A DNA stretch of 64,000 nucleotides from a phage, in the sequence record PX421306.1; one strand, written 5' to 3'. Made by a program: the position numbers and the translations under genes. The notes beneath the pieces are model-generated. The model saw only the letters and a program-made list of their open reading frames with translations. It made no database searches and was not told the origin of the DNA. Positions 10,472 to 64,000 of the stretch are shown one piece after another. Position 1 is the first letter of the stretch; every line of letters starts with the position of its first letter.

Positions 10472-10498
10472 AATCATATAAACCAAAAGGAAAGCGCA

Positions 10499-15235: not shown

Positions 15236-15264
15236 TAGATATATTTATTACATGGTATTTAGAC

Positions 15265-37395: not shown

Positions 37396-37916
37396 GTTGA
37401 TCCCAGCTCCTTACTTTCAACGTTTTTAACTAATTTGACAGAAACTAATTCGGCATCTTGGGTAATCATTACCGGGCCTTCTTCATACTCTTCAAGATAT
37501 TCTAGAGCTTTCTTTTTAGCTTCTTCCTTCGTATCAGTTTGAGCATAGATATAAAACATACAACCAGTAATACCTACTACTTTCCACTTAATTTCTTTAT
37601 CAGTTTTAATTTCAAATTTACTTGTAGAATCATCTTTTTGAACTTCTTCGAAAAAAGAATATTCTAACATATAAGCAATTGAAAATAACGGGCTAACTTT
37701 ATAGGATTCGCCCATTACATCAACAGCTTTATACCAGCAATCATCAATTTCACGTTTAATGCTAATAACATTTTTCGCAGGATCTATTTTTACTTTAAAT
37801 GAATTTTCCCCAATAAACTGGGCAATTCGTTTATTAGCCCCGCAGGTTTCATTAAAAATATCTTTATACCCAGCTTTAAAGCGATAAACCTTATCTTCTT
37901 CAAACCATTCGCTCAT
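37389..37916 (-). CDS. cd.3: Hypothetical protein (cd.3-like)
   Basis: 175-aa ORF. Confidence 0.5.
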   Translation of the reverse strand: MSEWFEEDKVYRFKAGYKDIFNETCGANKRIAQFIGENSFKVKIDPAKNVISIKREIDDCWYKAVDVMGESYKVSPLFSIAYMLEYSFFEEVQKDDSTSKFEIKTDKEIKWKVVGITGCMFYIYAQTDTKEEAKKKALEYLEEYEEGPVMITQDAELVSVKLVKNVESKELGSTC

Positions 37917-38457: not shown

Positions 38458-39850
<1,393 letters not shown>

Positions 39851-39854
<4 letters not shown>

Positions 39855-42900: not shown

Positions 42901-44070
42901 TTAAAAATATTTTTTAAAACTCATCATAACTTTATCATCAACATCATTATCAATCTGTGCAACAAGGTAAGATGACAGTTCTACTTCTTGTGGCGCTGAT
43001 TGAACATTATCAGAATTAAGATATTCACGAATCCAAGGATACGGATGTTTAACCGGAGCATCAGTAATTGGGCATGGAAGACCGCACTGTTTCATACGAG
43101 ATACAGTTAAGTAATCAATAAAGCTCCACATGCTATTTGTATTTAATCCAGGAACATCGCCATCTTTAAATAAATGAACTGCCCAGTCTTTTTCTTGACG
43201 GTTAACTTCCATGAAAATATCAACTGCTTCTTGTTCACACTCTTGGGCGATTTTAACCCATTCATCACCATCAGTGCCAAGCTGAAGTTGACGAATAATA
43301 TATTGGGTGCCTTTAAGGTGTAGCTGTTCATCACGAGCAATGAACTTCATAATCTTGGCATTACCTTCCATGATTTCCATGTTTTTGTGGAAGTTAAATG
43401 TACACGCGAAAGATACGTAAAAACGAATAGCTTCCAGAGCGTTGATTACATGAAGGCAAAGATAAAGAGATTTCATTAATGCTCGTTTAGTACATTCAAC
43501 AACTTTGCCTAACTCTTCTTTACGAAATCCTTCTGATAAAATTCCTTCATAATCTTCAACCGCATTCTGATATTCACGAGTCTTAACTAGAACGTCATCA
43601 TAATAACGACCAATAGATTCAGCACGTTTCATGATAGCTTTATCTAATACAATCTCATCAAATACCTTTGACGGATCAGTATAAAGATTTCGCATAATAT
43701 GAGTATATGAACGGCTGTGAATAGTTTCACTAAAAGTCCATGTAGCAACCCATGTATCAAGGCTTGGGTCTGAAATTAATGACATAAGTACAGCAGACGG
43801 TGCACGACCCTGAATGCTATCTAGAAGTGATTGATACTTCAGGTTATTAGTAAAAATATCCTGCTGATATTGAGGAAGCTTATTAAATTGTGCAGCATCC
43901 ATCATCAAGTTTACTTCTTCAGGACGCCAGAAAAATGACAACTGCTTTTCGGTTAAATCTTCAAAAACTTTATGACGTTGAATATCATAACGCGCAATAC
44001 CAAGACCTGAACCGAAGAACATAGGTTCTTTTAAAACATCAACTGGATTTGTATTAAAAACTGTGCTCAT
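42901..44070 (-). CDS. nrdB: Ribonucleotide reductase beta subunit NrdB (389 aa), uninterrupted
   Basis: Di-iron/tyrosyl radical family, continuous ORF. Confidence 0.96.
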   Translation of the reverse strand: MSTVFNTNPVDVLKEPMFFGSGLGIARYDIQRHKVFEDLTEKQLSFFWRPEEVNLMMDAAQFNKLPQYQQDIFTNNLKYQSLLDSIQGRAPSAVLMSLISDPSLDTWVATWTFSETIHSRSYTHIMRNLYTDPSKVFDEIVLDKAIMKRAESIGRYYDDVLVKTREYQNAVEDYEGILSEGFRKEELGKVVECTKRALMKSLYLCLHVINALEAIRFYVSFACTFNFHKNMEIMEGNAKIMKFIARDEQLHLKGTQYIIRQLQLGTDGDEWVKIAQECEQEAVDIFMEVNRQEKDWAVHLFKDGDVPGLNTNSMWSFIDYLTVSRMKQCGLPCPITDAPVKHPYPWIREYLNSDNVQSAPQEVELSSYLVAQIDNDVDDKVMMSFKKYF

Positions 44071-44121
44071 AAATTTTCCGCTTAGTTAATAGATAGTGAC
44101 TCGTCCGTGAGTCAAATTATA

Positions 44122-45111
44122 TCATAATTTACAGGATGAACAATCTTCAGCTTTTGGAGTTTCTATTTCATAATCATCAGTACCAGAACCGTCGCGGGTA
44201 TTATGATAATAGAAATTTTTTCCGCCAAAATACCAAAAGTACAAAAGGTCATCAATCATTACAGACATTGGAACCTTTCCTTTTGGAAAAATCTGCGGGT
44301 CATAATATGTATTCGCTGAAGCTGATTGACATACCCATTTCAGCATAATAGCTACCTGCGTAAGATAAGGTTTATTACCTTTCTTAGCCAATTTCCACGT
44401 ATAATCATAGAGGTCTATGTTATGTTCAATATTGGGCACGACTTGATTAAAGGAACCCTCTTTTGACTCTTTAACAGAGACTGGTCCACGTGGAGGCTCG
44501 ATACCGTTTGTACTGTTAGAAACTTGGGAAGATGACTCACATGGCATAAGTGCTGATAATGTGCTATTACGAATGCCAAAGAGCTTAAGGTCTTCCCGCA
44601 GCGACGACCAGTCACAAACGTATTTTGGAGCTGCGATTTGGTCAATCTTTTTATTGTACCAGTCGATAGGTAATTCGCCTCGAGACCAACGAGTGTCTGA
44701 ATAATATTCGCAAGGTCCTTTTTCTTTGGCGAGCTTAATGGATGCTTTAATGAGTCCATACTGTAATCTCTCAAATAGTTCATGTGTTAAATCGTTAGCA
44801 TCTTCATAAGAAGCAAAGTTACTTGCCAACCAAGCTGCATAGTTAGTAACACCTACACCAAGATTTCGACGCTTTTTAGCCTTTTCTGCTTCAGGAACTG
44901 GATATCCTTGGTAATCCAAAAGATTATCAAGAGCACGAACTTGGACTTCTGCTAATTCATTAATTTTATCTTGGTCTTGCCAATCGAAGTTATCTAACAC
45001 AAATGCGCTAAGGGTACAAAGCCCCACTTCTCCCTTGTTTTCAATAACTTCTATTGTAGTATACTCATCATCTTCGTAAAATTCATCTACAAATTCATAA
45101 TCAATATTCAT
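44122..45111 (-). CDS. nrdA: Ribonucleotide reductase alpha subunit, C-terminal fragment (329 aa)
   Basis: Begins with 19-27 non-native residues then EVGLCTLSAF...; C-terminal CxxC tail (CSSCKL); start overlaps HNH stop. Confidence 0.9.
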   Translation of the reverse strand: MNIDYEFVDEFYEDDEYTTIEVIENKGEVGLCTLSAFVLDNFDWQDQDKINELAEVQVRALDNLLDYQGYPVPEAEKAKKRRNLGVGVTNYAAWLASNFASYEDANDLTHELFERLQYGLIKASIKLAKEKGPCEYYSDTRWSRGELPIDWYNKKIDQIAAPKYVCDWSSLREDLKLFGIRNSTLSALMPCESSSQVSNSTNGIEPPRGPVSVKESKEGSFNQVVPNIEHNIDLYDYTWKLAKKGNKPYLTQVAIMLKWVCQSASANTYYDPQIFPKGKVPMSVMIDDLLYFWYFGGKNFYYHNTRDGSGTDDYEIETPKAEDCSSCKL

Positions 45112-45943
45112 TTAATTCTTCTACCTTTTTTCTAGTAATTCCTAAAGCTTTAGATGCTCGATGTATTGATTGATATTCTATACCGTTTATTTTTACAGCA
45201 ATTAAGTTATGGGGTTTTAATCCCTTTGGATGAGGTTTACTGACGAAAACTAAATTATCAAGCTCTGAAATCTTATCCAATTTCTTACACTTAAATCCTT
45301 TGTGATGCGCCCGTTTACCTTTACAAACGGCTGACATCGCAGATGGATTTAAATTATGCTCTTTACAAAATTCGTTAAGACCTCGATGAATTTCCTCATG
45401 ACCATCTGGAAATGTAAACACCCAAGACGTTTGAAGTCGAGATTTAACTTCTGGAGACATAGGAATACCTTTGTTCCAGGCCGGTTTGCCTTTATTATTT
45501 TCAGATACAGAAATAGCCAATTTTCTTCTAAGCCACCCATGTCGTTTATTGGTGTTCTTTCGTTCAATATTATCTTCAGAATAAACACACATCATATTAG
45601 CGGCAAATATCAATTTATGATTATCTGGATATATCTTTACTAATAATTGATGAGCTATGTAATGCTCTTCTGGTGTCAAATCTACCAGGTTTTCCTTTGT
45701 ATCAGAACCACCAATACACAGAGGTATAATATGATGTGATTCGGTATAGCAATCTAATTTTCTGTTCTTAGCTTTAGAAATAAGGTTATTGTAAATTTTA
45801 GAATAATCCATAACTTTTCCTCTTGTTATGGATTATTTATTAACGGTCTGTGTACTTTATTTGCTTTGAATTATACCGCCAGGATTAGCTTCATAAAACT
45901 TAGCTACATCCGACTTCTTAATTTTAATTAAACGGGTTTGTTG
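45050..45943 (-). mobile_element. Approximate extent of the homing-endonuclease insertion interrupting nrdA
   Basis: Region between the last native NrdA-N codons (NDVNS, ~45944) and resumption of native NrdA-C sequence; boundaries approximate. Confidence 0.5.
45101..45811 (-). CDS. mobE: mobE-like HNH homing endonuclease (236 aa) inserted within nrdA
   Basis: Mob-family HNH signature ESHHIIPLCIGGSDTKENLVDLTPEEHYIAHQ, NUMOD-like C-terminal motifs, SD AAGAGGA. Confidence 0.85.
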   Translation of the reverse strand: MDYSKIYNNLISKAKNRKLDCYTESHHIIPLCIGGSDTKENLVDLTPEEHYIAHQLLVKIYPDNHKLIFAANMMCVYSEDNIERKNTNKRHGWLRRKLAISVSENNKGKPAWNKGIPMSPEVKSRLQTSWVFTFPDGHEEIHRGLNEFCKEHNLNPSAMSAVCKGKRAHHKGFKCKKLDKISELDNLVFVSKPHPKGLKPHNLIAVKINGIEYQSIHRASKALGITRKKVEELNEY

Positions 45944-47290
45944 ACTATTCACGTCATTTGTTGGAATAGCAATTTCACAACACAAGTTACTCTGACGAAT
46001 AGGTGCCTTTTCACGAATAAATGGAGTATAGTTATTCGTATTATCAATGAACTGTACATAAATCCTTGCTGTTCCTGAGCGTTCAGTCATAAGTAATTCA
46101 AATAGTTCACGGGCTTTAATACGCTTTTTGCGAATATTAGGGTCTTTTTCTGCTGCTTCGTATAATTCGCGGAAACGGTCTTGGTCTTTAAAATAAGAAT
46201 AATAAAGCTCGCCACCCATTTCATGCGGACTGAATAAAGTAATGTAATCGTTCTTTCCGAATCGTTCCATCATCAAATCATTCAGCTGAACACCATAATC
46301 CATATGACGGATACGGTTTTCTTCTACACCTTTATTATTTTTCAAAACGAGAAGATTTTCAACTTCCAAATGCCAAATAGGATAATAAGCAGTAGCAGCG
46401 CCGCCACGAATTCCGCCTTGTGAACATGATTTAACAGCAGTCTGAAAATGTTTCCAAAAAGGAATAACGCCAGTATGACGCACTTCACCTGTGCCAATCT
46501 TAGAACCTTCAGCACGAATCATACCAACGTTAATGCCAATTCCAGCTCGTTTAGAAATATACTCAACAATTGAAGCAGAAGCCTTATTGATAGACTTCAG
46601 CGAATCACCTGCTTCAATAACAACGCATGAACTAAACTGTCGAGTTGGAGTACGACAACCAGCCATAATAGGAGTTGGCAATGAAATCTGTCGAGTAGAT
46701 ACTGCTTCATAAAAACGGATAACGTGTTTTAATCTATCAACAGGTTCATCTTGATGCAATGCCATTCCAATAGTCATAAATGCAAACTGTGGAGTTTCAT
46801 AAATTTGACCAGTGGTTTTATCTTTAACTAGATATTTTTCTTTTAATTGCATCGCCCCGGAATAAGTAAATTCCATATCCCGCTCATGCTTAATTTTTGA
46901 TTCTAAAAATGTAATTTCTTCGGCAGAATATTTTGACAACAATTCAGGGTCGTATTTACCTTCATTTACACAGTAAGAAATTTGATCAATAAATGAACGT
47001 GGTTCATACTGCCCATAAACATGCTTACGAAGAGCGAACATTAAACAGCGTGCAGCTACATATTGATAATCAGGCTCTTCAACTGAAATAGAATTCGCAG
47101 CAGCCTTAATGACAATAGTCTGAATGTCATCAGTTGTCATTCCATCACGGAGATATGATTTAATATTTTCATATAATTCATAAGGATCTACAGATGTTCC
47201 TTCAGCTGCCCAAGATAAAACTTTAATAATTTTTTGCGGGTCAAAGCTCTGAGAAACACCACTACTTTTGATAACATTAATTAATTGCAT
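45857..47290 (-). CDS. nrdA: Ribonucleotide reductase alpha subunit, N-terminal fragment (477 aa)
   Basis: MQLINVIKSSGVSQSFDPQKII... through active-site SNLCCEIAIPTNDVNS, then 28 unrelated residues and stop. Confidence 0.92.
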   Translation of the reverse strand: MQLINVIKSSGVSQSFDPQKIIKVLSWAAEGTSVDPYELYENIKSYLRDGMTTDDIQTIVIKAAANSISVEEPDYQYVAARCLMFALRKHVYGQYEPRSFIDQISYCVNEGKYDPELLSKYSAEEITFLESKIKHERDMEFTYSGAMQLKEKYLVKDKTTGQIYETPQFAFMTIGMALHQDEPVDRLKHVIRFYEAVSTRQISLPTPIMAGCRTPTRQFSSCVVIEAGDSLKSINKASASIVEYISKRAGIGINVGMIRAEGSKIGTGEVRHTGVIPFWKHFQTAVKSCSQGGIRGGAATAYYPIWHLEVENLLVLKNNKGVEENRIRHMDYGVQLNDLMMERFGKNDYITLFSPHEMGGELYYSYFKDQDRFRELYEAAEKDPNIRKKRIKARELFELLMTERSGTARIYVQFIDNTNNYTPFIREKAPIRQSNLCCEIAIPTNDVNSQQTRLIKIKKSDVAKFYEANPGGIIQSK

Positions 47291-47517
47291 AAGTCCTCAA
47301 CTTGAAAATCGTCTTTAAACAATCGGTTAACTATATGAGCTATTATATCACCATGACACGGCTTTGGTTTACATGTGCATCCTAGCCTCATTCCACGTAA
47401 AGGCTCTAAATGTGCTTTAGTTATTTCTCCGGATTTAATTCGACGTATAAAATCTTTTTTGAATAATTCAATGGCAGCCTCCCGGCTGCCAGCATCTTTA
47501 CCGACGTAATTTCCCAA
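47281..47517 (-). CDS. nrdA.1: Small protein with GCxC...PCHGD motif (DUF4326-like), nrdA.1 position
   Basis: 78 aa, motif LGCTCKPKPCHGD. Confidence 0.55.
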   Translation of the reverse strand: MGNYVGKDAGSREAAIELFKKDFIRRIKSGEITKAHLEPLRGMRLGCTCKPKPCHGDIIAHIVNRLFKDDFQVEDLCN

Positions 47518-47559
47518 AATGTACCACGGTGAATATTAACATCAAAGTCGGATTTATAT

Positions 47560-47835
47560 TTATTCACTACCCGGCATAGACGGCCCGCGTGGTAATAGTT
47601 CGTCATATTGTTTTTCCGTTAAAACAGTAATATCATAATAACAATCAGAAGAAGTTTTAACTGTAGAAATTTTATTATCAAAATACTCACGAGTCATTTT
47701 ATGAGTATAATATTTTTTGCCATAAATGATAATAGGCTGTTCTGGCCCTGGAACTTCCAGTTCACTTGGATTAGGAAGTGTAAAAAGAACGACACCAGAA
47801 GTATCCTTAAATCGTAAAATCATATATCCTCTCAA
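47560..47835 (-). CDS. nrdA.2: Hypothetical protein (nrdA.2 position)
   Basis: 91-aa ORF. Confidence 0.5.
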
Positions 47836-47846
47836 TTAAATTAAAA

Positions 47847-48706
47847 TTACACCGCCATCTTTCCTTTAATTGGCGGATGAGATACATAGTTGTTAAGAAC
47901 AAAATTATGTGGCTTTGCGAATTGACTCAACCAAAATACCTGAGATTCTGTGCCCCATTCATCAAATTCATCTGGAAATTTTAATTGTAATTCACATAAA
48001 TCCATAGGTTCACGACGTAAAATTTCTTTACATTGTTCTACGTGATTCATATAGATATGAGTATTACCACCAGAAAATATCAAATCTCCTGGAATAAGAT
48101 TACACATCTTAGCTACAATATGAACTAACGTAGCATATGATGCAATATTAAATGGAAGACCGAGGAAAACATCTACCGAACGTTGATACCACTGCAAATC
48201 CAAATAGCCATTACGCACATTAAACTGATAGAACATATGACAAGGTGGCAATGCCATCTGCTTGAGTTCTGCCGGATTCCATGCTGAAACAATTTGACGT
48301 CTATCATTTGGCAGTTTTTTAATACGATCAACAACTTCTACAATTTGGTCTACACCGCCAAAATCACGCCACTGTTTTCCATAAATTGGACCAAGTTCAC
48401 CGCTATGATATCCTAAATCTTTTGCTTGATTTTCGTAATTTTCATCCCAGACTGTTTTGCCTTGAATTAATGAATCGTGTTGAATTAATCGTAAATCATT
48501 AACATTTGTGCTTCCTGATAAAAACCAAAGGAGCTCAGCAATGCAAGCTTTCCAGGCAAGCTTCTTAGTCGTTACTGCAGGAAAACCTTTAGTTAAATCC
48601 CAGCGTAATTTAGTACCGAACAAAGCAATTGTTCCTGTGCCTGTTCGGTCATCGGTTTCATAACCGTTTTCCAGGATATCTTTAATTAAAAATTGGTATT
48701 GTTTCA

Positions 48707-48707
<1 letters not shown>
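47847..48707 (-). CDS. td: Thymidylate synthase (286 aa), uninterrupted (no intron)
   Basis: Continuous ORF MKQYQ...; catalytic PPCH motif; track ORF starts at upstream TTG. Confidence 0.95.
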
Positions 48708-49739
<1,032 letters not shown>

Positions 49740-49747
49740 ATTATCTC

Positions 49748-50083
49748 CTAATATAAAGGATCGGGAACATATCCACTGGCTTTAATCATTTTGATTAACG
49801 TTAGCAGTCCTTTATTAACTGCTTGTGAGATTTCATTAAAAACTTCATCACTAAAAAGTTCTAACACTCCCTTCTGAACTTTTAATTTACAACCAACAAT
49901 TTCGTCATCGCCTATAGTAAATTCGTTTCCGCCAATTCCACCGAAAAACTTAATTACACCAGTTAACTGTGTTCCACGAGAATATGGGTCGTGTGATAAA
50001 GTAATATGAGTCACCCCAGGTACAGTTTTAAATTGGCAGCGAATGTTTACTTGGGAAATTCCAGTTACATGAATGTCAGACAT
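49748..50083 (-). CDS. Hypothetical protein (111 aa)
   Basis: SD GAGGAAA. Confidence 0.5.
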   Translation of the reverse strand: MSDIHVTGISQVNIRCQFKTVPGVTHITLSHDPYSRGTQLTGVIKFFGGIGGNEFTIGDDEIVGCKLKVQKGVLELFSDEVFNEISQAVNKGLLTLIKMIKASGYVPDPLY

Positions 50084-50093
50084 AATATTTTCC

Positions 50094-50336
50094 TCAAACA
50101 GACTTTTTCACAATTTTCCAATCAGCTTTAAACTGATCAACGTCAGAATGGTAAATCCAGAATCCTGCGCTTTCTCCATCCTCATAAAGAGGGCATCCAT
50201 CGCATTCATCTTCCCATCCCATATCACGCAAAAGACGTTCAGCTTTTTCAACGAGTTCAGAATCTTTACCGATGATATTAAAATACCATTTACCTCTAAC
50301 TTCTGAATCTTTGATGCTCTGGCGCTGTAATCTCAT
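50094..50336 (-). CDS. Hypothetical protein (80 aa)
   Basis: SD AAGGAGA. Confidence 0.5.
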   Translation of the reverse strand: MRLQRQSIKDSEVRGKWYFNIIGKDSELVEKAERLLRDMGWEDECDGCPLYEDGESAGFWIYHSDVDQFKADWKIVKKSV

Positions 50337-50390
50337 TTTATTCTCCTTAGTTGATAGGGTAATAGTATCACACTACTACCCTTCTGTAAA

Positions 50391-50756
50391 CTACTTTTTG
50401 AAAGTTTTTCGCAAAAGTTCAATGATTTCATCTACATTGTTTTCGTCAACAATGCAGTGAATTTTTGTTACGCCAGAAACCTTGTCTTCTATTTCATCTT
50501 CTTCAGAAGTCGGTTCTTTATACTCACGAAAACAATGAAATTCGTCTTCGCAAACGTTAAAGTAAAAATGCTTTCCATTTGCACATTCAATGTGTTTTAT
50601 TACTCTAAATCCATCAGCAAAGAAAGCTTCTTTAACTTCAAACCATCCGCCATTTTCTTGAATAATTTTAACTATTGATGAATTAGAACGTGGGCGATAA
50701 TTAATAAATGTATCAATAAGTCTTGGAACAAGTTCATACTTTTTGCCAATATACAT
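50391..50756 (-). CDS. Hypothetical protein (121 aa)
   Basis: SD GAGGAAA. Confidence 0.5.
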   Translation of the reverse strand: MYIGKKYELVPRLIDTFINYRPRSNSSIVKIIQENGGWFEVKEAFFADGFRVIKHIECANGKHFYFNVCEDEFHCFREYKEPTSEEDEIEDKVSGVTKIHCIVDENNVDEIIELLRKTFKK

Positions 50757-50800
50757 TACGTTTTCCTCATTTTAACGGGGCTGTAATAGCCCCTTGATAA

Positions 50801-51028
50801 TTACTGCTCAATAAATCCTGTGTAAAATTCTACATCTTCAGCATCCATACCGTCACAATATTCATTAATCATAAATTGTTTAAGACGATTTAAAGGACCT
50901 TCAATAACAACTGAAACATTGCAATTGGGGTCATTTAGTGCGCTTGTAATACGGAGTTCAGGATAACGATTACGAATAATTTCTTCAATATATTCAAAAT
51001 CAACAACATCAATATCAATTTTAGCCAT
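50801..51028 (-). CDS. Hypothetical protein (75 aa from MAKIDID...)
   Basis: Strong SD AAGAGGAAA before internal ATG; longer track ORF would begin inside the gene 32 terminator. Confidence 0.5.
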
Positions 51029-51136
51029 GTTATTTTCCTCTTTAATCATCATCAGCAGTATTGCCGATAGTTGTATAGTACCATAAAGCTTTATGCTTGT
51101 AAACAGTTTTGTGAAAAAATTTTTGAAATAAAAAAA

Positions 51137-51155
51137 GGGGACCTCTAGGGTCCCC
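51137..51155 (-). terminator. Gene 32 terminator
   Basis: GGGGACCC-UAGA-GGUCCCC followed by U-run on minus strand. Confidence 0.85.
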
Positions 51156-51177
51156 AATTAATTAGTAATATAATCTA

Positions 51178-52086
51178 TTAAAGGTCATTCAAAAGGTCAT
51201 CCAGGTCCGTGTCATCAGCACTAGATGAACTGCCAGAGCTTGAGCTCATAAAATCATCTTCAGTTTTTGTTTTGAAGTCATCAACATTGAATGCATCCAA
51301 ATCATCAGCAACTTTATCAGCTTTCTTAGCGGCAGTCGCTGCGGCACCACCCATAGCAGCAGTTCCCATAACTTGACTGAACTTAGTGCTCAGTTCTTCA
51401 AACGATTTGAATTTATCTTTAGAAGTCATTTCAGAAAGGTCAACCATTTGTTCGAACAATTCTTTCTGGAAAGATTCATCATCAATGTTTGGAATCGCAG
51501 ATTGATTCAGGAATTTAGATTCGTCGTAGTTACTAAAACCAGAAACTTGTTTAACTTTCAGTACAAAGTTAGCACCTTCCCACGGACAAGTTACATCAAC
51601 CGGAGTTTCACCCATTTCAACATCAACTGCAATCATTGCATTGATTTTATCCCAGATTTTCTTACCGAAACGATATTTAAATACTTTACCTTCATTTTCT
51701 GGAGCAGCTGGGTCTTTTACAACAAGAATGTTAGCCCAGTAAGAAGTTTTACGTTTAACAAGACCGTACTCTTTATTGTCAGTGTTATACAAATCATTTT
51801 TACTGATGTACTGACATACTGGACAAGAATCGTAATCACCGTAGGTAGATGAGCATGTTTCAATATACCATTTACCATTTTTCTTGAAACCGTGATTTAC
51901 AAGAAGTGCGAATGGTGCTTGTTCATCATTTTTAGACGGAAGAAAACGAATTACTGCTTGACCGTTACCCGCATTGTCGAGTTTCAGTTTCCACTCGCCT
52001 TTATCTTCAGAAGAAAAACCACCTTTATTTCCAGCCAGTTTAGCCATTTGTGCAGCGAGTTCAGCAGTAGATTTACGTTTAAACAT
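51178..52086 (-). CDS. 32: Single-stranded DNA-binding protein gp32 (302 aa)
   Basis: [17 protein letters not shown]..., acidic Ser-rich C-terminus; matches T4 gp32. Confidence 0.97.
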
Positions 52087-52185
52087 TTTTATTTCCTTTT
52101 TAATTTAATTAACAGTTGGTGCTATGACGATGTATGACCTCATAGCTGGTCAGTGAGATAATTATAATCTATTTATAATAAGCAA
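52087..52185 (-). promoter_or_regulatory. Gene 32 control region: MotA-box middle promoter (TTGCTTA, 52179-52185) with -10 TATAAT (52161-52166), late promoter TATAAATA (52170-52177) and AU-rich translational operator (UUAAUUAAAUUAAAAAGGAAAUAAAA-AUG)
   Basis: Motifs read on the minus strand; unstructured A/U repeat leader matches the known gp32 autoregulatory site. Confidence 0.65.
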
Positions 52186-52839
52186 TTAATACTTGCAAGA
52201 TTTCACAGTTTCAATGAAAACACTTTTAGCTTTCTGTGAATCAATATTTAAAATTTTTCTATAAGCCTTTAACTTTATAGAATAATTATTCCAGACTAAA
52301 TTATCAGTCTGTTCATCATGTTTATCAATTATATTTAAAAACGAATCAAGCAAGATAAACGTCTCAAACGAAATTATATTCGATTGAAGTAGTTTAAAAA
52401 TATAACTTGATTGAACTTTTGGATTATACTCAAAGATTTCTTTAAAAGCAGAAACTTCAACTTTTTTACTAAAATAATAAATGTTGCGAATATCTTCTTC
52501 AAACTTAAATTTAATTTGCTTTAAGCGTCCGATATATTCACGATAAAACACAAGTGCATCAGCGTCAGAGATGTCACCAATCCAAGCATCTTGGTTAGCA
52601 ACCAAATTACTTATAAAAATTAAAGCAAGTTCCTTTAATTTATATTTTTCTGATAACTTCTGGAAAAAATACTTATCCCTTCGCTTTTGATAAGCGGCAT
52701 CAGACACCCGCATGCACCAATTATACTTAATTACATCATACTTTCCATTCATATGTTGTTTTATCATTAAGTATAATTTATAAACTGATTTACCATCAAT
52801 GTATCTTTCACCACCAGCAGGCATGCGGAGTTTAATCAT
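52186..52839 (-). CDS. 59: Helicase loader gp59 (217 aa)
   Basis: 217 aa, position upstream of gene 32. Confidence 0.92.
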   Translation of the reverse strand: MIKLRMPAGGERYIDGKSVYKLYLMIKQHMNGKYDVIKYNWCMRVSDAAYQKRRDKYFFQKLSEKYKLKELALIFISNLVANQDAWIGDISDADALVFYREYIGRLKQIKFKFEEDIRNIYYFSKKVEVSAFKEIFEYNPKVQSSYIFKLLQSNIISFETFILLDSFLNIIDKHDEQTDNLVWNNYSIKLKAYRKILNIDSQKAKSVFIETVKSCKY

Positions 52840-54451: not shown

Positions 54452-57400
54452 ATGGCCGAGATTAAAAGAAAGTTCAGAGCAGAAGACGGTCTGGACGCAG
54501 GTGGCGATAAAATAATCAACGTAGCTTTAGCTGATCGTACCGTAGGAACTGACGGTGTTAACGTTGATTACCTAATTCAAGAAAACACAGTTCAACAATA
54601 TGATCCAACTCGTGGATATTTAAAAGATTTTGTAATCATTTATGATAACCGCTTTTGGGCTGCTATAAATGATATTCCAAAACCAGCGGGAACTTTTAAT
54701 AGTGGACGCTGGAGAGCATTGCGTACTGATGCTAACTGGATTACAGTTTCATCTGGTTCATATCAATTAAAATCCGGTGAAGCTATTTCGGTTAACACTG
54801 CAGCTGGTAATGATATCACATTTACTTTACCATCTACTCCAATTGACGGTGATACTATCGTTCTCCAAGACATTGGAGGAAAACCTGGGGTTAACCAAGT
54901 TTTAATTGTAGCTCCAGTGCAAAGTATTGTAAACTTCAGAGGTGAACAAGTACGTTCAGTACTAATGACTCATCCAAAGTCACAGTTAGTTTTAATTTTT
55001 AGTAATCGCCTGTGGCAAATGTATGTGGCTGATTATAGTAGAGAAGCTGTAGTTGTAACACCAGCGAATACTTATCAAGCGCAATCCAACGATTTTATCG
55101 TACGTAGATTTACTTCTGCTGCACCGATTAATATTAAACTTCCGAGATTTGCTAATCACGGCGATATTATTAATTTCGTCGATTTGGATAAATTAAATCC
55201 ACTTTATCATACAATTGTTACTACATACGATGAAACTACATCAGTACAAGAAGATGGAACTCATTCTATTGAAGGCCGTACATCTATTGACGGTTTCTTG
55301 ATGTATGATGATAATGAAAAATTGTGGAGATTGTTTGACGGAGACAGCAAAGCACGTTTACGTATCATAACGACTAATTCAAACATTCGTCCAAATGAAG
55401 AAGTTATGGTATTTGGTGCGAATAATGGAATAACTCAAACAATTGAACTCCAGCTTCCAACTAATATTTCTGTTGGTGATACTGTTAAAATTTCCATGAA
55501 TTACATGAGAAAAGGACAAACAGTTAAAATCAAAGCTGCCGGTGAAGATAAAATTGCTTCTTCAGTTCAATTGCTGCAGTTCCCAAAACGTTCAGAATAT
55601 CCGCCTGAAGCTGAATGGGTAACTGTTCAAGAATTAGTTTTTAACGGTGAAACTAATTATGTTCCAGTTTTACAACTTGCTTATATAGAAGATTCTGACG
55701 GAAAATACTGGGTTGTACAGCAAAACGTTCCAACTGTAGAAAGAGTTGATTCTTTAAATGATTCTACTAGAGCAAGATTAGGCGTAATTGCTTTAGCTAC
55801 ACAAGCTCAAGCTAATGCTGATTTAGAAAATTCTCCACAAAAAGAATTAGCAATTACTCCAGAAACATTAGCTAACCGTACTGCTACAGAAACTCGTAGA
55901 GGTATCGCAAGAATAGCAACTACTGCTCAAGTGAATCAGAACACTACATTCTCTTTTGCTGACGATATTATCATCACTCCTAAAAAGCTGAATGAAAGAA
56001 CTGCTACAGAAACTCGTAGAGGTGTTGCTGAAATTGCTACGCAGCAGGAAACTAATGCAGGTACTGATGATACTACAATCATCACTCCTAAAAAGCTTCA
56101 AGCTCGACAAGGTTCTGAGTCATTATCTGGTATTGTAACTTTTGTATCTACTACAGGAGCTACTCCAGCTTCTAGTCGTGAATTAAATGGTACAAACGTT
56201 TATAATAAAAACACTAATAATTTAGTCGTTTCGCCTAAAGCTTTGGATCAGTATAAAGCTACTCCAACGCAACAAGGTGCAGTAATTTTAGCAGTTGAAA
56301 GTGAAGTAATTGCTGGACAGAGTCAAGAAGGATGGGCAAATGCTGTTGTAACGCCAGAAACGTTACATAAAAAGACATCAACTGATGCAAGAATTGGTTT
56401 AATTGAAATTGCTACACAAAGTGAAGTTAATACAGGAACTGATTATACTCGTGCAGTCACTCCTAAAACTTTAAATGACCGTATAGCAACTGAAAGTTTA
56501 AGTGGTATAGCTGAAATTGCTACACAAGTTGAATTCGACGCAGGCGTCGACGATACTCGTATCTCTACACCATTAAAAATTAAAACCAGATTTAATAGTA
56601 CTGATCGTACTTCTGTTGTTGCTCTATCTGGATTAGTTGAATCAGGAACTCTCTGGGACCATTATACCCTTAATATTCTTGAAGCAAATGAGACACAGCG
56701 TGGTACACTTCGTGTAGCTACACAAGTTGAAGCTGCTGCAGGAACATTGGATAATGTTTTAATAACTCCTAAAAAGCTTTTAGGTACTAAATCTACCGAA
56801 TCGCAAGAAGGTGTTATTAAAGTTGCAACTCAGACTGAAACTGTGGCTGGAACGTCAGCAAATACTGCTGTATCTCCAAAAAATTTAAAATGGATTGTGC
56901 AGAGTGAACCTACTTGGGCAGCTACTACTGCAATAAGAGGCTTTGTTAAAACTTCATCTGGTTCAATTACATTCGTTGGTAATGATACAGTTGGTTCTAC
57001 ACAGAGCTTAGAGCTATACGAGAAAAATAGCTATGCAGTATCACCATATGAATTAAACCGTGTATTAGCAAATTATTTGCCGTTAAAAGCAAAAGCTGCT
57101 GACGCGAATTTATTAGATGGTCTAGATTCATCTCAGTTCATTCGTAGGGATATTGCACAGACGGTTAATGGTTCACTAACCTTAACCCAACAAACGAATC
57201 TGAATGCCCCTCTTGTATCATCTAGTACTGCTACGTTTGGTGGCTCGTTGGCTGCTAACTCCACATTTACTATACGTAACACAGGAACTCCGACCCGCAT
57301 CGTTTTCGAAAAAGGTCCTGCATCCGGTGCAAACCCGGTTCAGTCAATGAGCATCCGTGTATGGGGTAACCAGTATGGTGGCGGTTCAGATACAACACGT

Positions 57401-58321
57401 TCTACTGTATTTGAAGTTGGCGATGAAACATCTCATCACTTTTATTCTCAGCGTAATAAAGACGGTACTATAGCGTTTATCATTAATGGTACTGTAATGC
57501 CAATAAACATTAATGCTTCCGGTTTGATGAATGTGAATGGCACTGCAACATTTGGTAGTTCAGTTACAGCCAATGGTGAATTCATCAGCAAGTCTGCAAA
57601 TGCTTTTAGAGCAATAAGTGGTAATTATGGATTCTTTATTCGCAATGATGCTACTAACACCTATTTTATGCTTACTGCATCGGGTGATCAGACTGGCGGA
57701 TTTAATGGATTACGTCCTTTAGCTATTAACAATGCATCTGGTCAAGTAACGATTGGTGAAAGCTTAATCATTGCCAAAGGTGCTACTATAAATTCAGGTG
57801 GTTTAACTGTTAACTCGAGAATTCGTTCTCAGGGCACTAAAACATCTGACTTATATACCCGTGCACCGACATCTGATACTGTAGGATTCTGGTCAATCGA
57901 TATTAACGATTCAGCCACTTATAACCAGTTCCCAGGTTATTTTAAAATGGTTGAAAAAACTAATGAAGTGACTGGACTTCCATACTTAGAACGTGGTGAA
58001 GAAGTTAAATCTCCTGGTACATTGACTCAGTTTGGTAACACACTTGATTCACTTTACCAAGATTGGATTACTTATCCAACAACTCCAGAAGCACGTACAA
58101 CCCGTTGGACACGTACATGGCAGAAAACTAAAAATTCTTGGTCGAGTTTTGTTCAGGTATTTGATGGTGGAAACCCTCCTCAACCGTCTGATATCGGTGC
58201 TTTACCATCTGATAATGCTACAATGGGGAATCTTACTATTCGTGATTTCTTACGAATTGGTAATGTTCGCATTATTCCTGACCCAGTGAATAAAACGGTT
58301 AAATTTGAATGGGTTGAATAA
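54452..58321 (+). CDS. 34: Long tail fibre proximal subunit gp34 (1289 aa)
   Basis: 1289 aa, internal repeated motifs (TATETRRG.A.IAT); TATAAATA at 54410-54417. Confidence 0.96.
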   Translation: MAEIKRKFRAEDGLDAGGDKIINVALADRTVGTDGVNVDYLIQENTVQQYDPTRGYLKDFVIIYDNRFWAAINDIPKPAGTFNSGRWRALRTDANWITVSSGSYQLKSGEAISVNTAAGNDITFTLPSTPIDGDTIVLQDIGGKPGVNQVLIVAPVQSIVNFRGEQVRSVLMTHPKSQLVLIFSNRLWQMYVADYSREAVVVTPANTYQAQSNDFIVRRFTSAAPINIKLPRFANHGDIINFVDLDKLNPLYHTIVTTYDETTSVQEDGTHSIEGRTSIDGFLMYDDNEKLWRLFDGDSKARLRIITTNSNIRPNEEVMVFGANNGITQTIELQLPTNISVGDTVKISMNYMRKGQTVKIKAAGEDKIASSVQLLQFPKRSEYPPEAEWVTVQELVFNGETNYVPVLQLAYIEDSDGKYWVVQQNVPTVERVDSLNDSTRARLGVIALATQAQANADLENSPQKELAITPETLANRTATETRRGIARIATTAQVNQNTTFSFADDIIITPKKLNERTATETRRGVAEIATQQETNAGTDDTTIITPKKLQARQGSESLSGIVTFVSTTGATPASSRELNGTNVYNKNTNNLVVSPKALDQYKATPTQQGAVILAVESEVIAGQSQEGWANAVVTPETLHKKTSTDARIGLIEIATQSEVNTGTDYTRAVTPKTLNDRIATESLSGIAEIATQVEFDAGVDDTRISTPLKIKTRFNSTDRTSVVALSGLVESGTLWDHYTLNILEANETQRGTLRVATQVEAAAGTLDNVLITPKKLLGTKSTESQEGVIKVATQTETVAGTSANTAVSPKNLKWIVQSEPTWAATTAIRGFVKTSSGSITFVGNDTVGSTQSLELYEKNSYAVSPYELNRVLANYLPLKAKAADANLLDGLDSSQFIRRDIAQTVNGSLTLTQQTNLNAPLVSSSTATFGGSLAANSTFTIRNTGTPTRIVFEKGPASGANPVQSMSIRVWGNQYGGGSDTTRSTVFEVGDETSHHFYSQRNKDGTIAFIINGTVMPININASGLMNVNGTATFGSSVTANGEFISKSANAFRAISGNYGFFIRNDATNTYFMLTASGDQTGGFNGLRPLAINNASGQVTIGESLIIAKGATINSGGLTVNSRIRSQGTKTSDLYTRAPTSDTVGFWSIDINDSATYNQFPGYFKMVEKTNEVTGLPYLERGEEVKSPGTLTQFGNTLDSLYQDWITYPTTPEARTTRWTRTWQKTKNSWSSFVQVFDGGNPPQPSDIGALPSDNATMGNLTIRDFLRIGNVRIIPDPVNKTVKFEWVE

Positions 58322-58329: not shown

Positions 58330-59445
58330 ATGGAAAAATTTATGGCAGAGTTTGGACAAGGATATGTCCAAACGCCATTTTTATCGGAAAGTAATTCAGT
58401 AAGATATAAAATAAGCATAGCGGGTTCTTGCCCGCTTTCTACTGCAGGACCATACGTTAAATTTCAGGATAATCCTGTTGGAAGTCAAACATTTAGCGCA
58501 GGACTTCATTTAAGAGTTTTTGACCCTTCTACAGGAGCATTAGTTGATAGTAAGTCATATGCTTTTTCTACTTCAAATGATACTACATCAGCGGCTTTTG
58601 TTAGTTTCATGAATTCTTTGACGAATAATAGACTTGTTGCTATATTAACTAGTGGAAAGGTTAATTTTCCTCCTGAAGTGGTGTCTTGGTTAAGAACCGC
58701 AGGAACGTCTGCTTTTCCATCTGATTCTATATTGTCAAGATTCGACGTATCATATGCTGCTTTTTACACTTCTTCTAAAAGAGCTATTGCATTAGAGCAT
58801 GTTAAACTAAGTAATAGAAAAAGCACAGATGATTATCAAACTATTTTAGATGTTGTATTTGACAGTTTAGAAGACGTTGGAGCTACCGGATTTCCAAGAA
58901 GAACGTATGAAAGCGTTGATCAATTTATGTCGGCAGTTGGCGGAACTAATAATGAAATTGCGCGATTGCCAACTTCAGCTGCCATAAGTAAATTATCTGA
59001 CTATAATTTAATTCCTGGCGATGTTCTTTATCTTAAAGCTCAGTTATATGCTGATGCCGATTTACTTGCGCTTGGAACTACAAATATATCTATCCGTTTT
59101 TATAATTCATCAAATGGATATATTTCTTCAACACAAGCTGAGTTCACCGGACAAGCTGGGTCTTGGGAATTAAAGGAAGATTATGTAGTTGTTCCAGAAA
59201 ACGCTGTGGGATTTACGATATACGCGCAAAGAACTGCACAAGCCGGTCAAGGTGGCATGAGAAATTTAAGCTTTTCTGAAGTGTCAAGAAATGGAGGTAT
59301 TTCGAAACCCGCTGAATTTGGCGTCAATGGCATTCGTGTTAATTATATCTGTGAATCTGCTTCACCTCCGGATATAATGGTACTTCCTACACAAGCATCG
59401 TCTAAAACTGGTAAAGTGTTTGGGCAAGAATTTAGAGAAGTATAA
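58330..59445 (+). CDS. 35: Long tail fibre hinge connector gp35 (371 aa)
   Basis: 371 aa. Confidence 0.92.
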   Translation: MEKFMAEFGQGYVQTPFLSESNSVRYKISIAGSCPLSTAGPYVKFQDNPVGSQTFSAGLHLRVFDPSTGALVDSKSYAFSTSNDTTSAAFVSFMNSLTNNRLVAILTSGKVNFPPEVVSWLRTAGTSAFPSDSILSRFDVSYAAFYTSSKRAIALEHVKLSNRKSTDDYQTILDVVFDSLEDVGATGFPRRTYESVDQFMSAVGGTNNEIARLPTSAAISKLSDYNLIPGDVLYLKAQLYADADLLALGTTNISIRFYNSSNGYISSTQAEFTGQAGSWELKEDYVVVPENAVGFTIYAQRTAQAGQGGMRNLSFSEVSRNGGISKPAEFGVNGIRVNYICESASPPDIMVLPTQASSKTGKVFGQEFREV

Positions 59446-59507: not shown

Positions 59508-60173
59508 ATGGCTGATTTAAAAGTAGGTTCAACAACTGGAGGCTCTGTCATTTGGCATCAAGGAAATTTTCCATTGAATCCAGCCGGTGACGATGTACTC
59601 TATAAATCATTTAAAATATATTCAGAATACAATAAACCACAAGCTGCTGATAACGATTTCGTTTCTAAAGCTAATGGTGGTACTTATGCGTCAAAGGTAA
59701 CATTTAACAGTGGCGTGCAAATACCATATGCTATAAACAATACAAACCAAAGCGGTATTTATCCTGGCAATGGTGATGCAGCTACTTTTGCTACAGCAAA
59801 TATTGATATTGTTTCATGGTATGGTATTGGTTTTAAATCATCACAGGGTTCAGCAGCCAGAACTGTTGTAATTAATACGCGTAATGGTGATATTAGTACA
59901 AAAGGTGTCGTGTCGGCAACTGGTCAAGTAAGAAGTGATGCGACTGCTCCTATAGCAGCGAATGACCTTACTAGAAAAGACTATGTTGACGGAGCAATAA
60001 ATACTGTTACGGCAAATGCAGATTCTAGAGTTTTCCGTAAAGGAGACACTATGACTGGAAACTTAACCGCACCAAACTTTTTCTCGCAGAATCCTGCATC
60101 TCAACCTTCACATGTTCCACGATTTGACCAAATCGTAATTAAGGATTCTGTTCAAGATTTCGGCTATTATTAA
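59508..60173 (+). CDS. 36: Long tail fibre distal connector gp36 (221 aa)
   Basis: 221 aa; TATAAATA at 59477-59484. Confidence 0.93.
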   Translation: MADLKVGSTTGGSVIWHQGNFPLNPAGDDVLYKSFKIYSEYNKPQAADNDFVSKANGGTYASKVTFNSGVQIPYAINNTNQSGIYPGNGDAATFATANIDIVSWYGIGFKSSQGSAARTVVINTRNGDISTKGVVSATGQVRSDATAPIAANDLTRKDYVDGAINTVTANADSRVFRKGDTMTGNLTAPNFFSQNPASQPSHVPRFDQIVIKDSVQDFGYY

Positions 60174-60181: not shown

Positions 60182-63100
60182 ATGGCTACTTTAAAACAAA
60201 TACAATTTAAAAGAAGCAAAACCGCAGGTGCACGTCCTGCTGCTTCAGTATTAGCCGAAGGTGAATTGGCTATAAACTTAAAAGATAGAACAATTTTTAC
60301 TAAAGACGATTCAGGAAATATCATTGACTTAAGCATTTCTGCTGGCGGTAGTATCAGTGGAAATATCACTCAAACTGGCGATTATTTACAAAATGGAACA
60401 TATAATCTTAATGGAAACCAGTTTGTTTATGCAGGAAAATATATTGAATTTTTACCTAAAACTGCTGGTAATGGTGCTTGGGCAAATCAACATAAAAATA
60501 AAGCTCCTATCTTTACCGATTTGAGTTCAACGACTTCTACTTCAGAATACCATCCGCTAATTAAACAACGCTATAAAGATGGAACTTTTTCTGTTGGTAC
60601 GTTAGTAAACGAAGGTAGTTTTAAAATTCAATATATCAATGAATCTGGTGATTCAAAATATTGGACTTTTAATCGTAACGGTAGTTTTATTGTAGATAAT
60701 GGCAGTATTGAAGTCCGTGCAGGTAATATTTCTGCATCAGGCAATATTAACTCGGCAACTGGATTTGTTTCTGCACCGCGCGTCAATACAAAAAATATTA
60801 ACCTGAGTTCTAAAACCTTTATACCGAATAATGACACGGGTTATGACATTGTTTCTTTACCTACTTGGATTTATAATCCACCAGCAGATGGTTCTGACCG
60901 TGATACAAACGGATTGAACTACATGCGTAAAATGCGGGCTTCAAATACTTCTAGCATTTTCCATGAAATAGTTGACTGTCGTTCAGGAAAGCCACAAGAA
61001 ATTTCTTGGTGGACCGGCGTAGGACCTTCGTCTTTCCAGTGGGCATTTGATACCACTGGACGTATTACCGCAGGTAAATCTATTTCAGTAGGTCTTCCTG
61101 ATAGTGGTACAAATGGCCGTTATCCACTTGATTCTGCAATTTCTATTGGTATTGCGATTGGCGATAATGATACCGGTATTAAATGGGTCCGCGATGGCGT
61201 TTATGACCTGATGGCTAACGGTATTTCATCCGCTACCATTTTGAACAACGGTATTAATAGTACTAAAAAATTGATGGTTGGTTATAGCCGTGATTCCGGC
61301 TCTACTTGGGATTTCCCAAATAACAACCAAGCAATGTTTACTGCGCGTACCGATATTGATGGTAATAATAACGGCGATGGTCAGACTCATATTGGTTATA
61401 GCAGCAATTCTAAAATGTATCACTATTTCCGTGGCACGGGTCGTATGGCTGTCGGAATGGCTGAAGGTTTAATTGTTGAGCCGGGTATTTTAGATATTAA
61501 AACTGGGTCCAATAGAGTTGCTATTAGAGCAGATGGTACATTTGACTCAACCCAACGTATTTCAATGCGTACTGGATTATTTTTATCAGGTGATGATAAT
61601 ACCAATGCTTTGTCATTTAAAGCGCCTACAGGTGTTGACGGGACAAAAACCATTAACTGGGATGCAGGCACTCGTAATGGTCAGAATAAAAATACTGTAA
61701 CCATTAAAGCGTGGGGTAACTCATTTAACTCAACTCCAGGTAATAGAGAAACTGTATTCGAAGTTTCAGATTCACAAGGTTATTATTTCTACGCTCAACG
61801 TACTAATCCTGCGTCAGGTCAAACAGTAGGTCCTATTAATTTTAAATTTAATGGTACTGTAGAAACTGGACATATTGTTGGGCTCGGAAATATAAGTGCC
61901 TCTGGTACAGGTTCTTTTGGTGGCAATGTTACCATGTCTAATGGTTTGTTTGTCCAAGGTGGTTCTTCTATTACTGGGCAAGTTAAAATCGGCGGAACAT
62001 CAGATGCATTAAGAATTTGGAATGCTGAATATGGCGCAATTTTCCGTCGTTCTGAAGATAAGTTTTATATTATTCCAACTCCGCAGAATGCCGGTGAATC
62101 AGGTGGTATTTCTAATTTACGTCCGTTCTATATTACATTAAGTAATGGTAAAGTTTCCATGGATCATGATGTAGATATCGGCGGCGGTAGATTTAAAGTA
62201 GAAGTGGCTGGAACTACGGCTGGTCAACGTATTACAGTTAATGCAAGTAGCGATGCTATTAGAATAAATGCTCCAACACAAGAGTCTTCTAACTTCATTC
62301 AAGGACGTAAGGCTGATGTGCCTAAATGGTATTTGGGTATTGGTGATGGCGGCAATGTCGTTCGTATGCACAGCTACACACATTCACATGGTATTGCATT
62401 AAATTCTGATTCTGTCGATATTACTAAGCCTCTTAAAGTCGGCAATGCCCAACTAGGAACTGACGGTAATATTACCAATGGTTCAGGAAACTTTGCCAAC
62501 TTAAATACCACGTTAAATCGTAAAGTTAATTCTGGATTTATTACTTATGGAGCAACCTCTGGATGGTATAAGTTTGCAACTGTAACAATGCCACAATCCA
62601 CTTCAACAGTCTTCTTTAAAATAGTTGGAGGTTCTGGATTTAATAGCGGATTATTCACCCAATGTAATATTGCTGAAATTGTTTTACGTACTGGTAATGA
62701 AAGACCTTCTGACTTAAATGCTGTATTATACACAAGAACAACTGGAATGTATAGCGCAGCATTTAGAAATATTGCAGTTAACAATGTCTCTGGAAATACA
62801 TATGACATTTATGTTTATGCTGGAACATATTGTAATCAACTAGTTTGTGAATGGTCATGTACCGAAAATGCTACTGTTAGCGTTATTGGTATTAACTCAT
62901 CTACCCAATCACCTGTGGATGCTCTTCCAGATACAGCAGTTGATGGGCAAGTTGCTAATGTTCTTAATAACTTGGTTGATCGCGGTAAAGTTAAGCGTTA
63001 TGAAGCCGATTCTGAAATAGCTATTAATAGCCCAACCGGTATTCGTATCAGAAGCAATGGCGATAAAACTGGTTCTGTTGCTACAATGCTACGAAATGAT

Positions 63101-63970
63101 GGCGGCAGTTTTTATATTCTGTTTACAGATAAAAATGCCACCGATGGCGCAGCAACTGTTAATGGTGATTGGAATAGTAAACGTCCTTTCGCAATTAACT
63201 TAACAACCGGCGAAGTGATGATGAATAATGGCATAGCTGTTCGCAGCGCTGCTTTATTCTATAATAGCATAAACGTCAAAGATAATGGTTCTATTAACTT
63301 TGATAAATCAGGTGCTAACCCGAGAAATATGAGAATATTTCATGCTGGCGATGCTTCTCGCGGTAACCGCATTGAAATTGCAGATGAAACTAACTATATT
63401 GCTTACTTTGAAAAGACTCCAGGTGGAGCTAACCGCTTTGTAGTAAATAATGCTACTGTAGCTGGTGTTAACCAAATGAATTCATTTGGTATTAATATCA
63501 ATAACGCACTTGGTGGAAATAGTATAGCATTTGGTGATAATGACACTGGAATTAAACAATCCGGTGACGGACTTCTTGATATTATTACTAACGCCGCACG
63601 CCGAATGAGATTCCAGACAGGTGACACCTATTCTGACATGAATATAAACGCTCCAAACGTTTATATTCGTTCTGATATTCGTTTGAAATCTAATTTCAGA
63701 CCTATTGAAAATGCTCTTGAAAAGGTTGAACAGCTTGATGGTTTAATCTATGATAAAGCTGACTATATAGGTGGTGAAATTGTTCAGACTGAAGCGGGTA
63801 TTGTGGCTCAAACACTGCAAGATGTTTTACCAGAAGCAGTTCGTGAAGTTGAAGATATTAAAGGTAATAAAATACTCACTGTTTCTTCTCAATCCCAGAT
63901 TGCTCTTCTAGTTGAAGCTGTGAAAACACTTTCTGCTCGTGTAAAAGAACTTGAATCTAAACTTATGTAA
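60182..63970 (+). CDS. 37: Long tail fibre distal subunit gp37 (1262 aa), T2-type with C-terminal intramolecular chaperone domain
   Basis: N-terminus MATLKQIQFKRSK...; C-terminal ...IRSDIRLKSNF... chaperone/S74-like domain. Confidence 0.93.
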   Translation: MATLKQIQFKRSKTAGARPAASVLAEGELAINLKDRTIFTKDDSGNIIDLSISAGGSISGNITQTGDYLQNGTYNLNGNQFVYAGKYIEFLPKTAGNGAWANQHKNKAPIFTDLSSTTSTSEYHPLIKQRYKDGTFSVGTLVNEGSFKIQYINESGDSKYWTFNRNGSFIVDNGSIEVRAGNISASGNINSATGFVSAPRVNTKNINLSSKTFIPNNDTGYDIVSLPTWIYNPPADGSDRDTNGLNYMRKMRASNTSSIFHEIVDCRSGKPQEISWWTGVGPSSFQWAFDTTGRITAGKSISVGLPDSGTNGRYPLDSAISIGIAIGDNDTGIKWVRDGVYDLMANGISSATILNNGINSTKKLMVGYSRDSGSTWDFPNNNQAMFTARTDIDGNNNGDGQTHIGYSSNSKMYHYFRGTGRMAVGMAEGLIVEPGILDIKTGSNRVAIRADGTFDSTQRISMRTGLFLSGDDNTNALSFKAPTGVDGTKTINWDAGTRNGQNKNTVTIKAWGNSFNSTPGNRETVFEVSDSQGYYFYAQRTNPASGQTVGPINFKFNGTVETGHIVGLGNISASGTGSFGGNVTMSNGLFVQGGSSITGQVKIGGTSDALRIWNAEYGAIFRRSEDKFYIIPTPQNAGESGGISNLRPFYITLSNGKVSMDHDVDIGGGRFKVEVAGTTAGQRITVNASSDAIRINAPTQESSNFIQGRKADVPKWYLGIGDGGNVVRMHSYTHSHGIALNSDSVDITKPLKVGNAQLGTDGNITNGSGNFANLNTTLNRKVNSGFITYGATSGWYKFATVTMPQSTSTVFFKIVGGSGFNSGLFTQCNIAEIVLRTGNERPSDLNAVLYTRTTGMYSAAFRNIAVNNVSGNTYDIYVYAGTYCNQLVCEWSCTENATVSVIGINSSTQSPVDALPDTAVDGQVANVLNNLVDRGKVKRYEADSEIAINSPTGIRIRSNGDKTGSVATMLRNDGGSFYILFTDKNATDGAATVNGDWNSKRPFAINLTTGEVMMNNGIAVRSAALFYNSINVKDNGSINFDKSGANPRNMRIFHAGDASRGNRIEIADETNYIAYFEKTPGGANRFVVNNATVAGVNQMNSFGININNALGGNSIAFGDNDTGIKQSGDGLLDIITNAARRMRFQTGDTYSDMNINAPNVYIRSDIRLKSNFRPIENALEKVEQLDGLIYDKADYIGGEIVQTEAGIVAQTLQDVLPEAVREVEDIKGNKILTVSSQSQIALLVEAVKTLSARVKELESKLM

Positions 63971-63971
63971 A

Positions 63972-63989
63972 AGAGGGCTTCGGCCCTCT
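63972..63989 (+). terminator. Hairpin after gene 37 (AGAGGGC-TTCG-GCCCTCT)
   Basis: Perfect 7-bp stem with UUCG loop directly after stop codon. Confidence 0.65.
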
Positions 63990-64000
63990 AAGGATTTTTA

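Follow-up and report, generated by a model that had tools for sequence, protein, structure and literature searches.

A report of 1986 (Drexler et al., cited in PMC3157838) described the proteolytic processing of the long tail fibre protein gp37 of phage T2, and in many T-even phages the C terminus of gp37 undergoes cleavage and carries a gp38 adhesin of about 260 aa as a cap (PMC3157838). The gp38-adhesin form is predominant among T4-type phages, the T4 version being a replacement by lambda-derived sequence (PMC3157838). In S16, gp37 autocleaves its last 113 residues, so exposing a docking surface for gp38, and it is for S16 and the fPS phages that the assignment of an intramolecular chaperone (IMC) in T-even gp37 is explicit (PMC7917993). 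In K1F, T5 and S16, three C-terminal domains trimerise and template the tip, with a Lys-activated Ser cutting the bond on its own N-terminal side (PMC4690869, PMC7917993); in T5 and K1F an upstream Arg/Asp of the neighbouring chain acts as a 'folding sensor', which ties cleavage to a correct trimer (PMC4690869).

The window, i.e. the whole 64,000-nucleotide stretch of phage DNA analysed here (PX421306.1), closes with the long-tail-fibre genes in the T4 order, 34-35-36-37 (Table 1). Positions 63671-63967, at the end of gene 37, very probably encode the C-terminal intramolecular chaperone (MEROPS/Pfam Peptidase_S74) of a T2-type gp37, with the cleavage and gp38 capping proposed below. Direct support comes from the identity of the domain, its catalytic residues and its fold, from homology with T2, K3 and S16, from the absence of the domain in T4, and from the gp38 gene of a near-identical genome.

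Table 1. Tail-fibre genes at the end of the window, with the features of gp37 and of the spacer that follows its gene
Feature	Positions	Strand	Size or description	Basis
gp34	54452..58321		1289 aa; tail-fibre block at window end	
gp35	58330..59445		371 aa; tail-fibre block at window end	
gp36	59508..60173		221 aa; tail-fibre block at window end	
Gene 37, long tail fibre distal subunit precursor	60182..63970	+	1262 aa, 135.6 kDa	ORF list and translation
Mature gp37 distal tip, aa 1100-1163	63479..63670	+	Ends NAPNVYIR; predicted gp38 adhesin docking surface	
Predicted scissile bond, Arg1163^Ser1164	63668..63673	+	Codons CGT TCT	S16 and T5 precedent
Whole intramolecular chaperone (predicted to be released), aa 1164-1262	63671..63967	+	99 aa, 10.9 kDa	
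Pfam Peptidase_S74 (PF13884) match, aa 1164-1221	63671..63844	+	Profile positions 1-58 of 58	E 8.4e-14, 52 bits
Catalytic motif S-D-I-R-L-K	63671..63688	+	Ser1164 nucleophile and Lys1169 general base (i, i+5)	Invariance, T5 spacing, S16 alignment
Long C-terminal helix, aa 1236-1261	63887..63964	+	Model residues 137-162	DSSP helix
UUCG-tetraloop hairpin, gene 37 stop to gene 38 start	63972..63989	+	-13.4 kcal/mol	Terminator-like scan

The C terminus of gp37 is a Peptidase_S74 domain

The product of gene 37 matches PHROG 1699, 'long tail fiber protein distal subunit' (E 1.5e-297). Its translation reads ...NAPNVYIRSDIRLKSNFRPIENALEKVEQLDGLIYDK...KELESKLM before the stop, the end also being written ...DMNINAPNVYIRSDIRLKSNFRPIENALEKVEQLDGLIYDK...SARVKELESKLM and stop. 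The C-terminal sequence quoted in the initial annotation, and the interval 63671-63970 given for it, are present as described: the Ser1164 codon (TCT) begins at base 63671, the stop codon ends with base 63970, and the interval thus comprises 99 codons plus the stop. The length of about 98 residues given there is the count from Asp1165; from Ser1164 it is 99.

That annotation had proposed, from the motif pattern, a Peptidase_S74 or C-terminal intramolecular chaperone domain (CIMCD), and suggested a profile search, which bears the proposal out. The match to PF13884, named 'Chaperone of endosialidase' in Pfam, scores 52 bits against a curated gathering cut-off of 22 bits and is far above chance. 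The domain extends to the final residue of gp37 and directly follows beta-structure, for which strands are predicted at aa 1103-1145 in a monomer model. When aa 1100-1262 were searched against 5.8 billion proteins, 72 matches were obtained, and PF13884 is present in nearly all of those spanning the C-terminal part. When 54 of these 72 homologues are aligned, the invariant columns are Ser1164, Asp1165, Lys1169, one Ala-Gln pair and one Pro-Glu pair; the spacing of the Ser and Lys is that of the T5 pb1 dyad, Ser1264/Lys1269 (PMC4690869). By tblastn the 99-aa segment is found in 1401 phage records from many genera, including gp36, gp12, baseplate and L-shaped fibre proteins as well as gp37 of K3, the classic gp38-adhesin (OmpA-binding) phage. 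K3 gp37 (X04747, 1243 aa) is close in length to the 1262 aa of the window's gp37, and in the comparison, which covered the C-terminal 99 aa, the domain is 87.9% identical.

An AlphaFold2 model of aa 1100-1262, built as a monomer from the 54-sequence alignment, has a mean pLDDT of 80, rising to about 90-96 across most of the IMC, which is modelled as strands and short helices with a terminal helix of 26 residues. By comparison with the structures of T5 and K1F, this last helix (aa 1236-1261) is expected to contribute to a trimeric coiled coil of the chaperone. The tip preceding the IMC is beta-rich, with monomer pLDDT values of 43-73 overall and 55-73 in its beta-rich part, and those for aa 1148-1161, the 14 residues before the cleavage site, fall below 50; such low values are expected there because the model is a monomer of what would be an intertwined trimer.

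The only PDB entries to reach a Foldseek probability of at least 0.97 are three members of one family, all intramolecular chaperones. The top match is the ICA domain of the eukaryotic protein MYRF (7dc3; E 8.9e-6, TM 0.50-0.58, 26% identity), which has the AQ..(L/V)LPEAV motif in common with gp37. MYRF is a membrane-bound transcription factor, however, in which cleavage frees a nuclear fragment and is not a step of fibre maturation. The others are the CIMCD of K1F endosialidase (3gw6, E 7.4e-4) and the IMC of the GA-1 neck appendage (3gud, E 0.23, probability 0.98), which have the same fold as the gp37 IMC (probability 0.97-0.99) at 15-17% identity. K1F, GA-1 and T5 pb1 are also like gp37 in having a Ser...Lys(+5) dyad and in the C-terminal position of the domain on a trimeric fibre or spike (PMC4690869). 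By contrast, theirs are larger domains (133 aa in T5) that include long beta-hairpin 'tentacles', and the mature proteins themselves act on the receptor, by binding or degrading it, with no separate adhesin.

At the level of sequence the best PDB match is the S16 gp37 tip and IMC (6f45, E 2.2e-10), and the MyRF ICA domain gives a weak match. The tip motif GDNDTG aligns, as does the site S-D-x-R-[IL]-K (SDRRIK in S16, SDIRLK here). S16 is only distantly related, its tip showing low identity and several indels, and it releases 113 residues as against a predicted 99 here. Entry 6f45 was expected as a fold match also, but is absent from the Foldseek matches, perhaps because the cleaved IMC is absent from the deposited coordinates.

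Predicted cleavage site and proposed maturation of gp37

Precedent for the position of the cut comes from S16, where it lies at DLNVS^SDRRIKK, with the aligned fPS phages having DVYIR^SDGRLKI (PMC7917993), and from T5, where the bond cut is Thr1263-Ser1264 and the serine leaves with the chaperone; K1F is cited as a further precedent for a cut before the Ser, and the phi29 cut was modelled otherwise, on weak density (PMC4690869). Of the initial annotation's account of the cleavage, the Ser as predicted nucleophile is supported, but its placement of the cut, IRS|DIRLK, is probably one residue off, as the S16 and T5 precedents give IR^SDIRLK. Cleavage before the Ser would remove 99 aa of 10.9 kDa, and gp37 in virions should then be a protein of about 124.7 kDa and not 135.6 kDa, about 11 kDa below the value for the ORF.

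The residues directly before Ser1164, NVYIR, are the same in T2 and match those of the fPS phages (DVYIR^S). They appear to form the conserved terminal strand (xVYIR) onto which gp38 would dock, and, from S16 (PMC7917993), aa 1100-1163 as a whole are predicted to be the docking surface for the gp38 adhesin.

By analogy with S16, T5 and K1F, trimer-dependent cleavage at this bond and gp38 docking may be envisaged for the window's gp37 as follows. The C-terminal domains would bring three gp37 chains into register, their terminal helices forming a coiled coil, and the chaperone trimer would nucleate folding of the fibre tip, itself trimeric and beta-structured. When this tip has reached its correct fold, Lys1169 would activate Ser1164 for attack on the Arg1163-Ser1164 bond in each chain; R1140, R1141, R1143, D1148, D1152 and R1163 are candidates for the upstream 'folding sensor' Arg/Asp. 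The 99-residue domain would then leave, and the exposed ...NAPNVYIR end would be capped by the glycine-rich gp38 adhesin encoded by the next gene, the reader of the host outer-membrane receptor.

That the C-terminal domain serves permanently for trimerisation, as a module of a foldon-like or P22 caudal fin-like kind kept uncleaved on the virion, is most improbable. The long terminal helix alone would suffice for trimerisation, the C-terminal fin of P22 is an uncleaved auto-chaperone (PMC4690869), and cleavage of the gp37 studied here is a step that we infer. Against such a module, however, the Ser/Lys dyad is invariant in the 54 homologues, the cleavage-site sequence is that of T2 gp37, which is known to be processed, and an uncleaved domain would block the surface that gp38 uses in S16. 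About equally improbable are two variations on the proposed scheme, i.e. that the freed 99-residue trimer has a second role, e.g. in passing the fresh gp37 tip to gp38, or that gp37 is in part left uncleaved, giving mixed fibres.

The tip of gp37 is of the T2 and not the T4 type

The T2-like tip predicted in the initial annotation is evident on comparison with T2 gp37 (1341 aa, AP018813), which has a Peptidase_S74 match at aa 1243-1300. Over the last 165 aa the two proteins are 80% identical; in the IMC, the part predicted to be released, 87 of the 99 residues are the same, as are 44 of the 64 in the tip (aa 1100-1163), including the final nine. The 17-residue cleavage-site sequence, NAPNVYIRSDIRLKSNF (NAPNVYIR^SDIRLKSNF), is identical in both, and the spacer between genes 37 and 38, with its hairpin, is likewise identical. 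The shafts, by contrast, are mosaic, with large indels and an overall identity of 48%: T2 gp37 includes about 130 aa of T4-like sequence missing from the window's gp37, of which aa 1026-1097 are, in turn, without a T2 counterpart in the alignment.

T4 differs in the manner that the initial annotation had described. In the Pfam profile search T4 gp37 (1026 aa) gives Collar, Phage_fiber repeats and Gp34_trimer, and no S74 domain, and T4 gp38 (183 aa) is an unrelated protein with a sub-threshold Caudo_TAP match only. A T4-type tip, in which gp37 would carry its own needle-like receptor-binding domain and require a separate gp38 chaperone, might be thought likely from the shared 34-35-36-37 gene order and from the approximately 94% identity to T4 of the rest of the window. 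The window's gp37, however, has neither Collar nor the His-rich Phage_fiber repeats by Pfam search, both of which T4 gp37 has towards its C terminus; the end-to-end BLASTP alignment with T4 gp37 covers only aa 1-663, at 45% identity, with short, weak local matches beyond; and nucleotide similarity to T4 stops 146 nt into gene 37, except for an island at 61634-62079, with no T4 match past 62079. A T4-type tip, to which almost no probability can be attached, is refuted by this domain content and by the point at which the T4 gp37 alignment ends.

Several other segments of gp37 have relatives elsewhere. In the mid-shaft, aa 700-766 (62279-62479) match Pfam gp37_trimer (E 1.6e-10) and also the structures of the phage T7 tail fibre gp17 (4a0t/4a0u, E about 5e-5), a module common to T-even and T7 fibres. 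The tip motif GDNDTGIK..DG..D occurs twice, at about 61154-61210 (aa 325-343) and at 63530-63586 (aa 1117-1135); the T2 tip module aligns with the internal copy at about 31% identity, an alignment suggesting that a tip-like unit has been duplicated internally, within the gp37 shaft. Nearer the N terminus, aa 92-170 (60455-60691) are 36% identical to T4 gp37 aa 683-770 and not to the collinear T4 part, an off-register match that is a further sign of module shuffling in gene 37.

The gene downstream of gene 37

The initial annotation had also expected the next gene, outside the window, to encode a gp38 adhesin, and by proxy this appears to be so. From 60182 to 64000 the window differs from Escherichia phage REP4 (OQ174503), a Tequatrovirus from river water in the USA, by 2 mismatches in 3819 nt, with one amino-acid change (T292S), such that the gp37 proteins are 99.9% identical. 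In REP4 the next CDS starts at the very next base after the window end and encodes a 263-aa glycine-rich protein that matches Pfam GP38 (E 5.5e-69), Gp38_N (E 7.3e-18) and PHROG 2056, 'tail fiber protein; host specificity'; it is followed by holin t, as is gene 38 in T2 and T4. In all nine phage records present in both the gene 37 search and the gp38 search (REP4, UFV13, RB18, G50, SA20RB, KIT06, TB004, slur07 and JoYop) the gp38 match begins at the base adjoining the end of the gene 37 match. A GP38-family adhesin gene thus probably follows gene 37 directly in the window phage, and the DNA past 64000 is predicted to start ATGGCAATTGTAGGT... and to encode a protein with Gp38_N and GP38 domains.

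The 30-nt spacer between the two genes, TAAAAGAGGGCTTCGGCCCTCTAAGGATTTTTA, is the same in the window, up to its last base, as in REP4 and T2, and has an AAGGA ribosome-binding site at 63990-63994; the ATG of gene 38 would start at 64001, just past the window. The hairpin in the spacer is GC-rich, has a similar counterpart in T4, and carries the annotation 'terminator' in two related records. Instead, it may serve to stabilise RNA, a role considered because gene 38 starts 11 nt later.

A further possibility is that the chaperone is cleaved but that mature gp37 itself binds the receptor, as do T5 pb1 and the endosialidases, without a gp38 cap. The S74 domains of T5 and K1F serve fibres that bind their receptors directly (PMC4690869), and the gp38 gene of the window phage lies beyond the window end. 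REP4, however, only 2 nt different in gene 37, has a GP38-family adhesin gene directly downstream, the spacer with its AAGGA site is that of both T2 and REP4, and the terminal NAPNVYIR strand is that of T2; receptor binding by uncapped gp37 is therefore very unlikely, and capping by a gp38 adhesin is the preferred reading.

By BLASTP, REP4 gp38 and T2 gp38 share 75% identity over aa 1-148, but the C-terminal, receptor-binding half gives no alignment, so the receptor specificity of T2 need not apply here. [quoted passage not shown] REP4 gp38 is 97% identical to gp38 of the BASEL phage TadeuszReichstein and of several AV phages, and 90% identical to that of FL37/FL38; under those phage names, the text of the Gp38-receptor paper gives none of OmpA, Tsx, OmpF or OmpC as receptor for gp38 of the REP4 type. 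In the BASEL-completion paper, IMC domains come up only in connection with T5-like and T7-like fibres, so it does not bear on gp37.

The assignment of an S74 end to this T2-type gp37 is correct but ordinary, and already known. Processing and gp38 capping of T2/T6 gp37 are textbook matters, and the finding is counted as ordinary because the processing is published, the IMC is explicit for S16 and the fPS phages, and the REP4 sequence is already public and annotated. With the domain in so many phage records and an essentially identical genome available in REP4, there is nothing new here on tail-fibre assembly. The use of the result is in annotation and in host-range prediction, as receptor specificity would reside in the small downstream gp38 adhesin and not in gp37.

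Other features of the window

The initial annotation had described the remainder of the window as near T4-like, with which the comparison agrees: about 49 kb compared with fetched T4 segments has a mean nucleotide identity of 94.4%, in a comparison that excludes T4 coordinates 140000-148999, such that window positions 44071-52642 are to be regarded as uncompared, not divergent. Two ORFs, at 37389-37916 (-; 175 aa) and 39552-39854 (-; 100 aa), have no nucleotide match to the T4 segments compared, and neither has a Pfam match. At the junctions 10426-10487, 15251-15271 and 43403-43404, mobile elements of T4 are missing, i.e. the homing endonuclease genes segD and segE and the nrdB group I intron with I-TevIII. 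At 25684-27741 (-) and 27745-29841 (-) there are tandem full-length genes for Alt-like ADP-ribosyltransferases of 685 and 698 aa, both of which match Pfam ADPrib_exo_Tox and which are 41% identical to each other; at this locus T4 has one alt gene together with the remnants alt.-1 and alt.-2.
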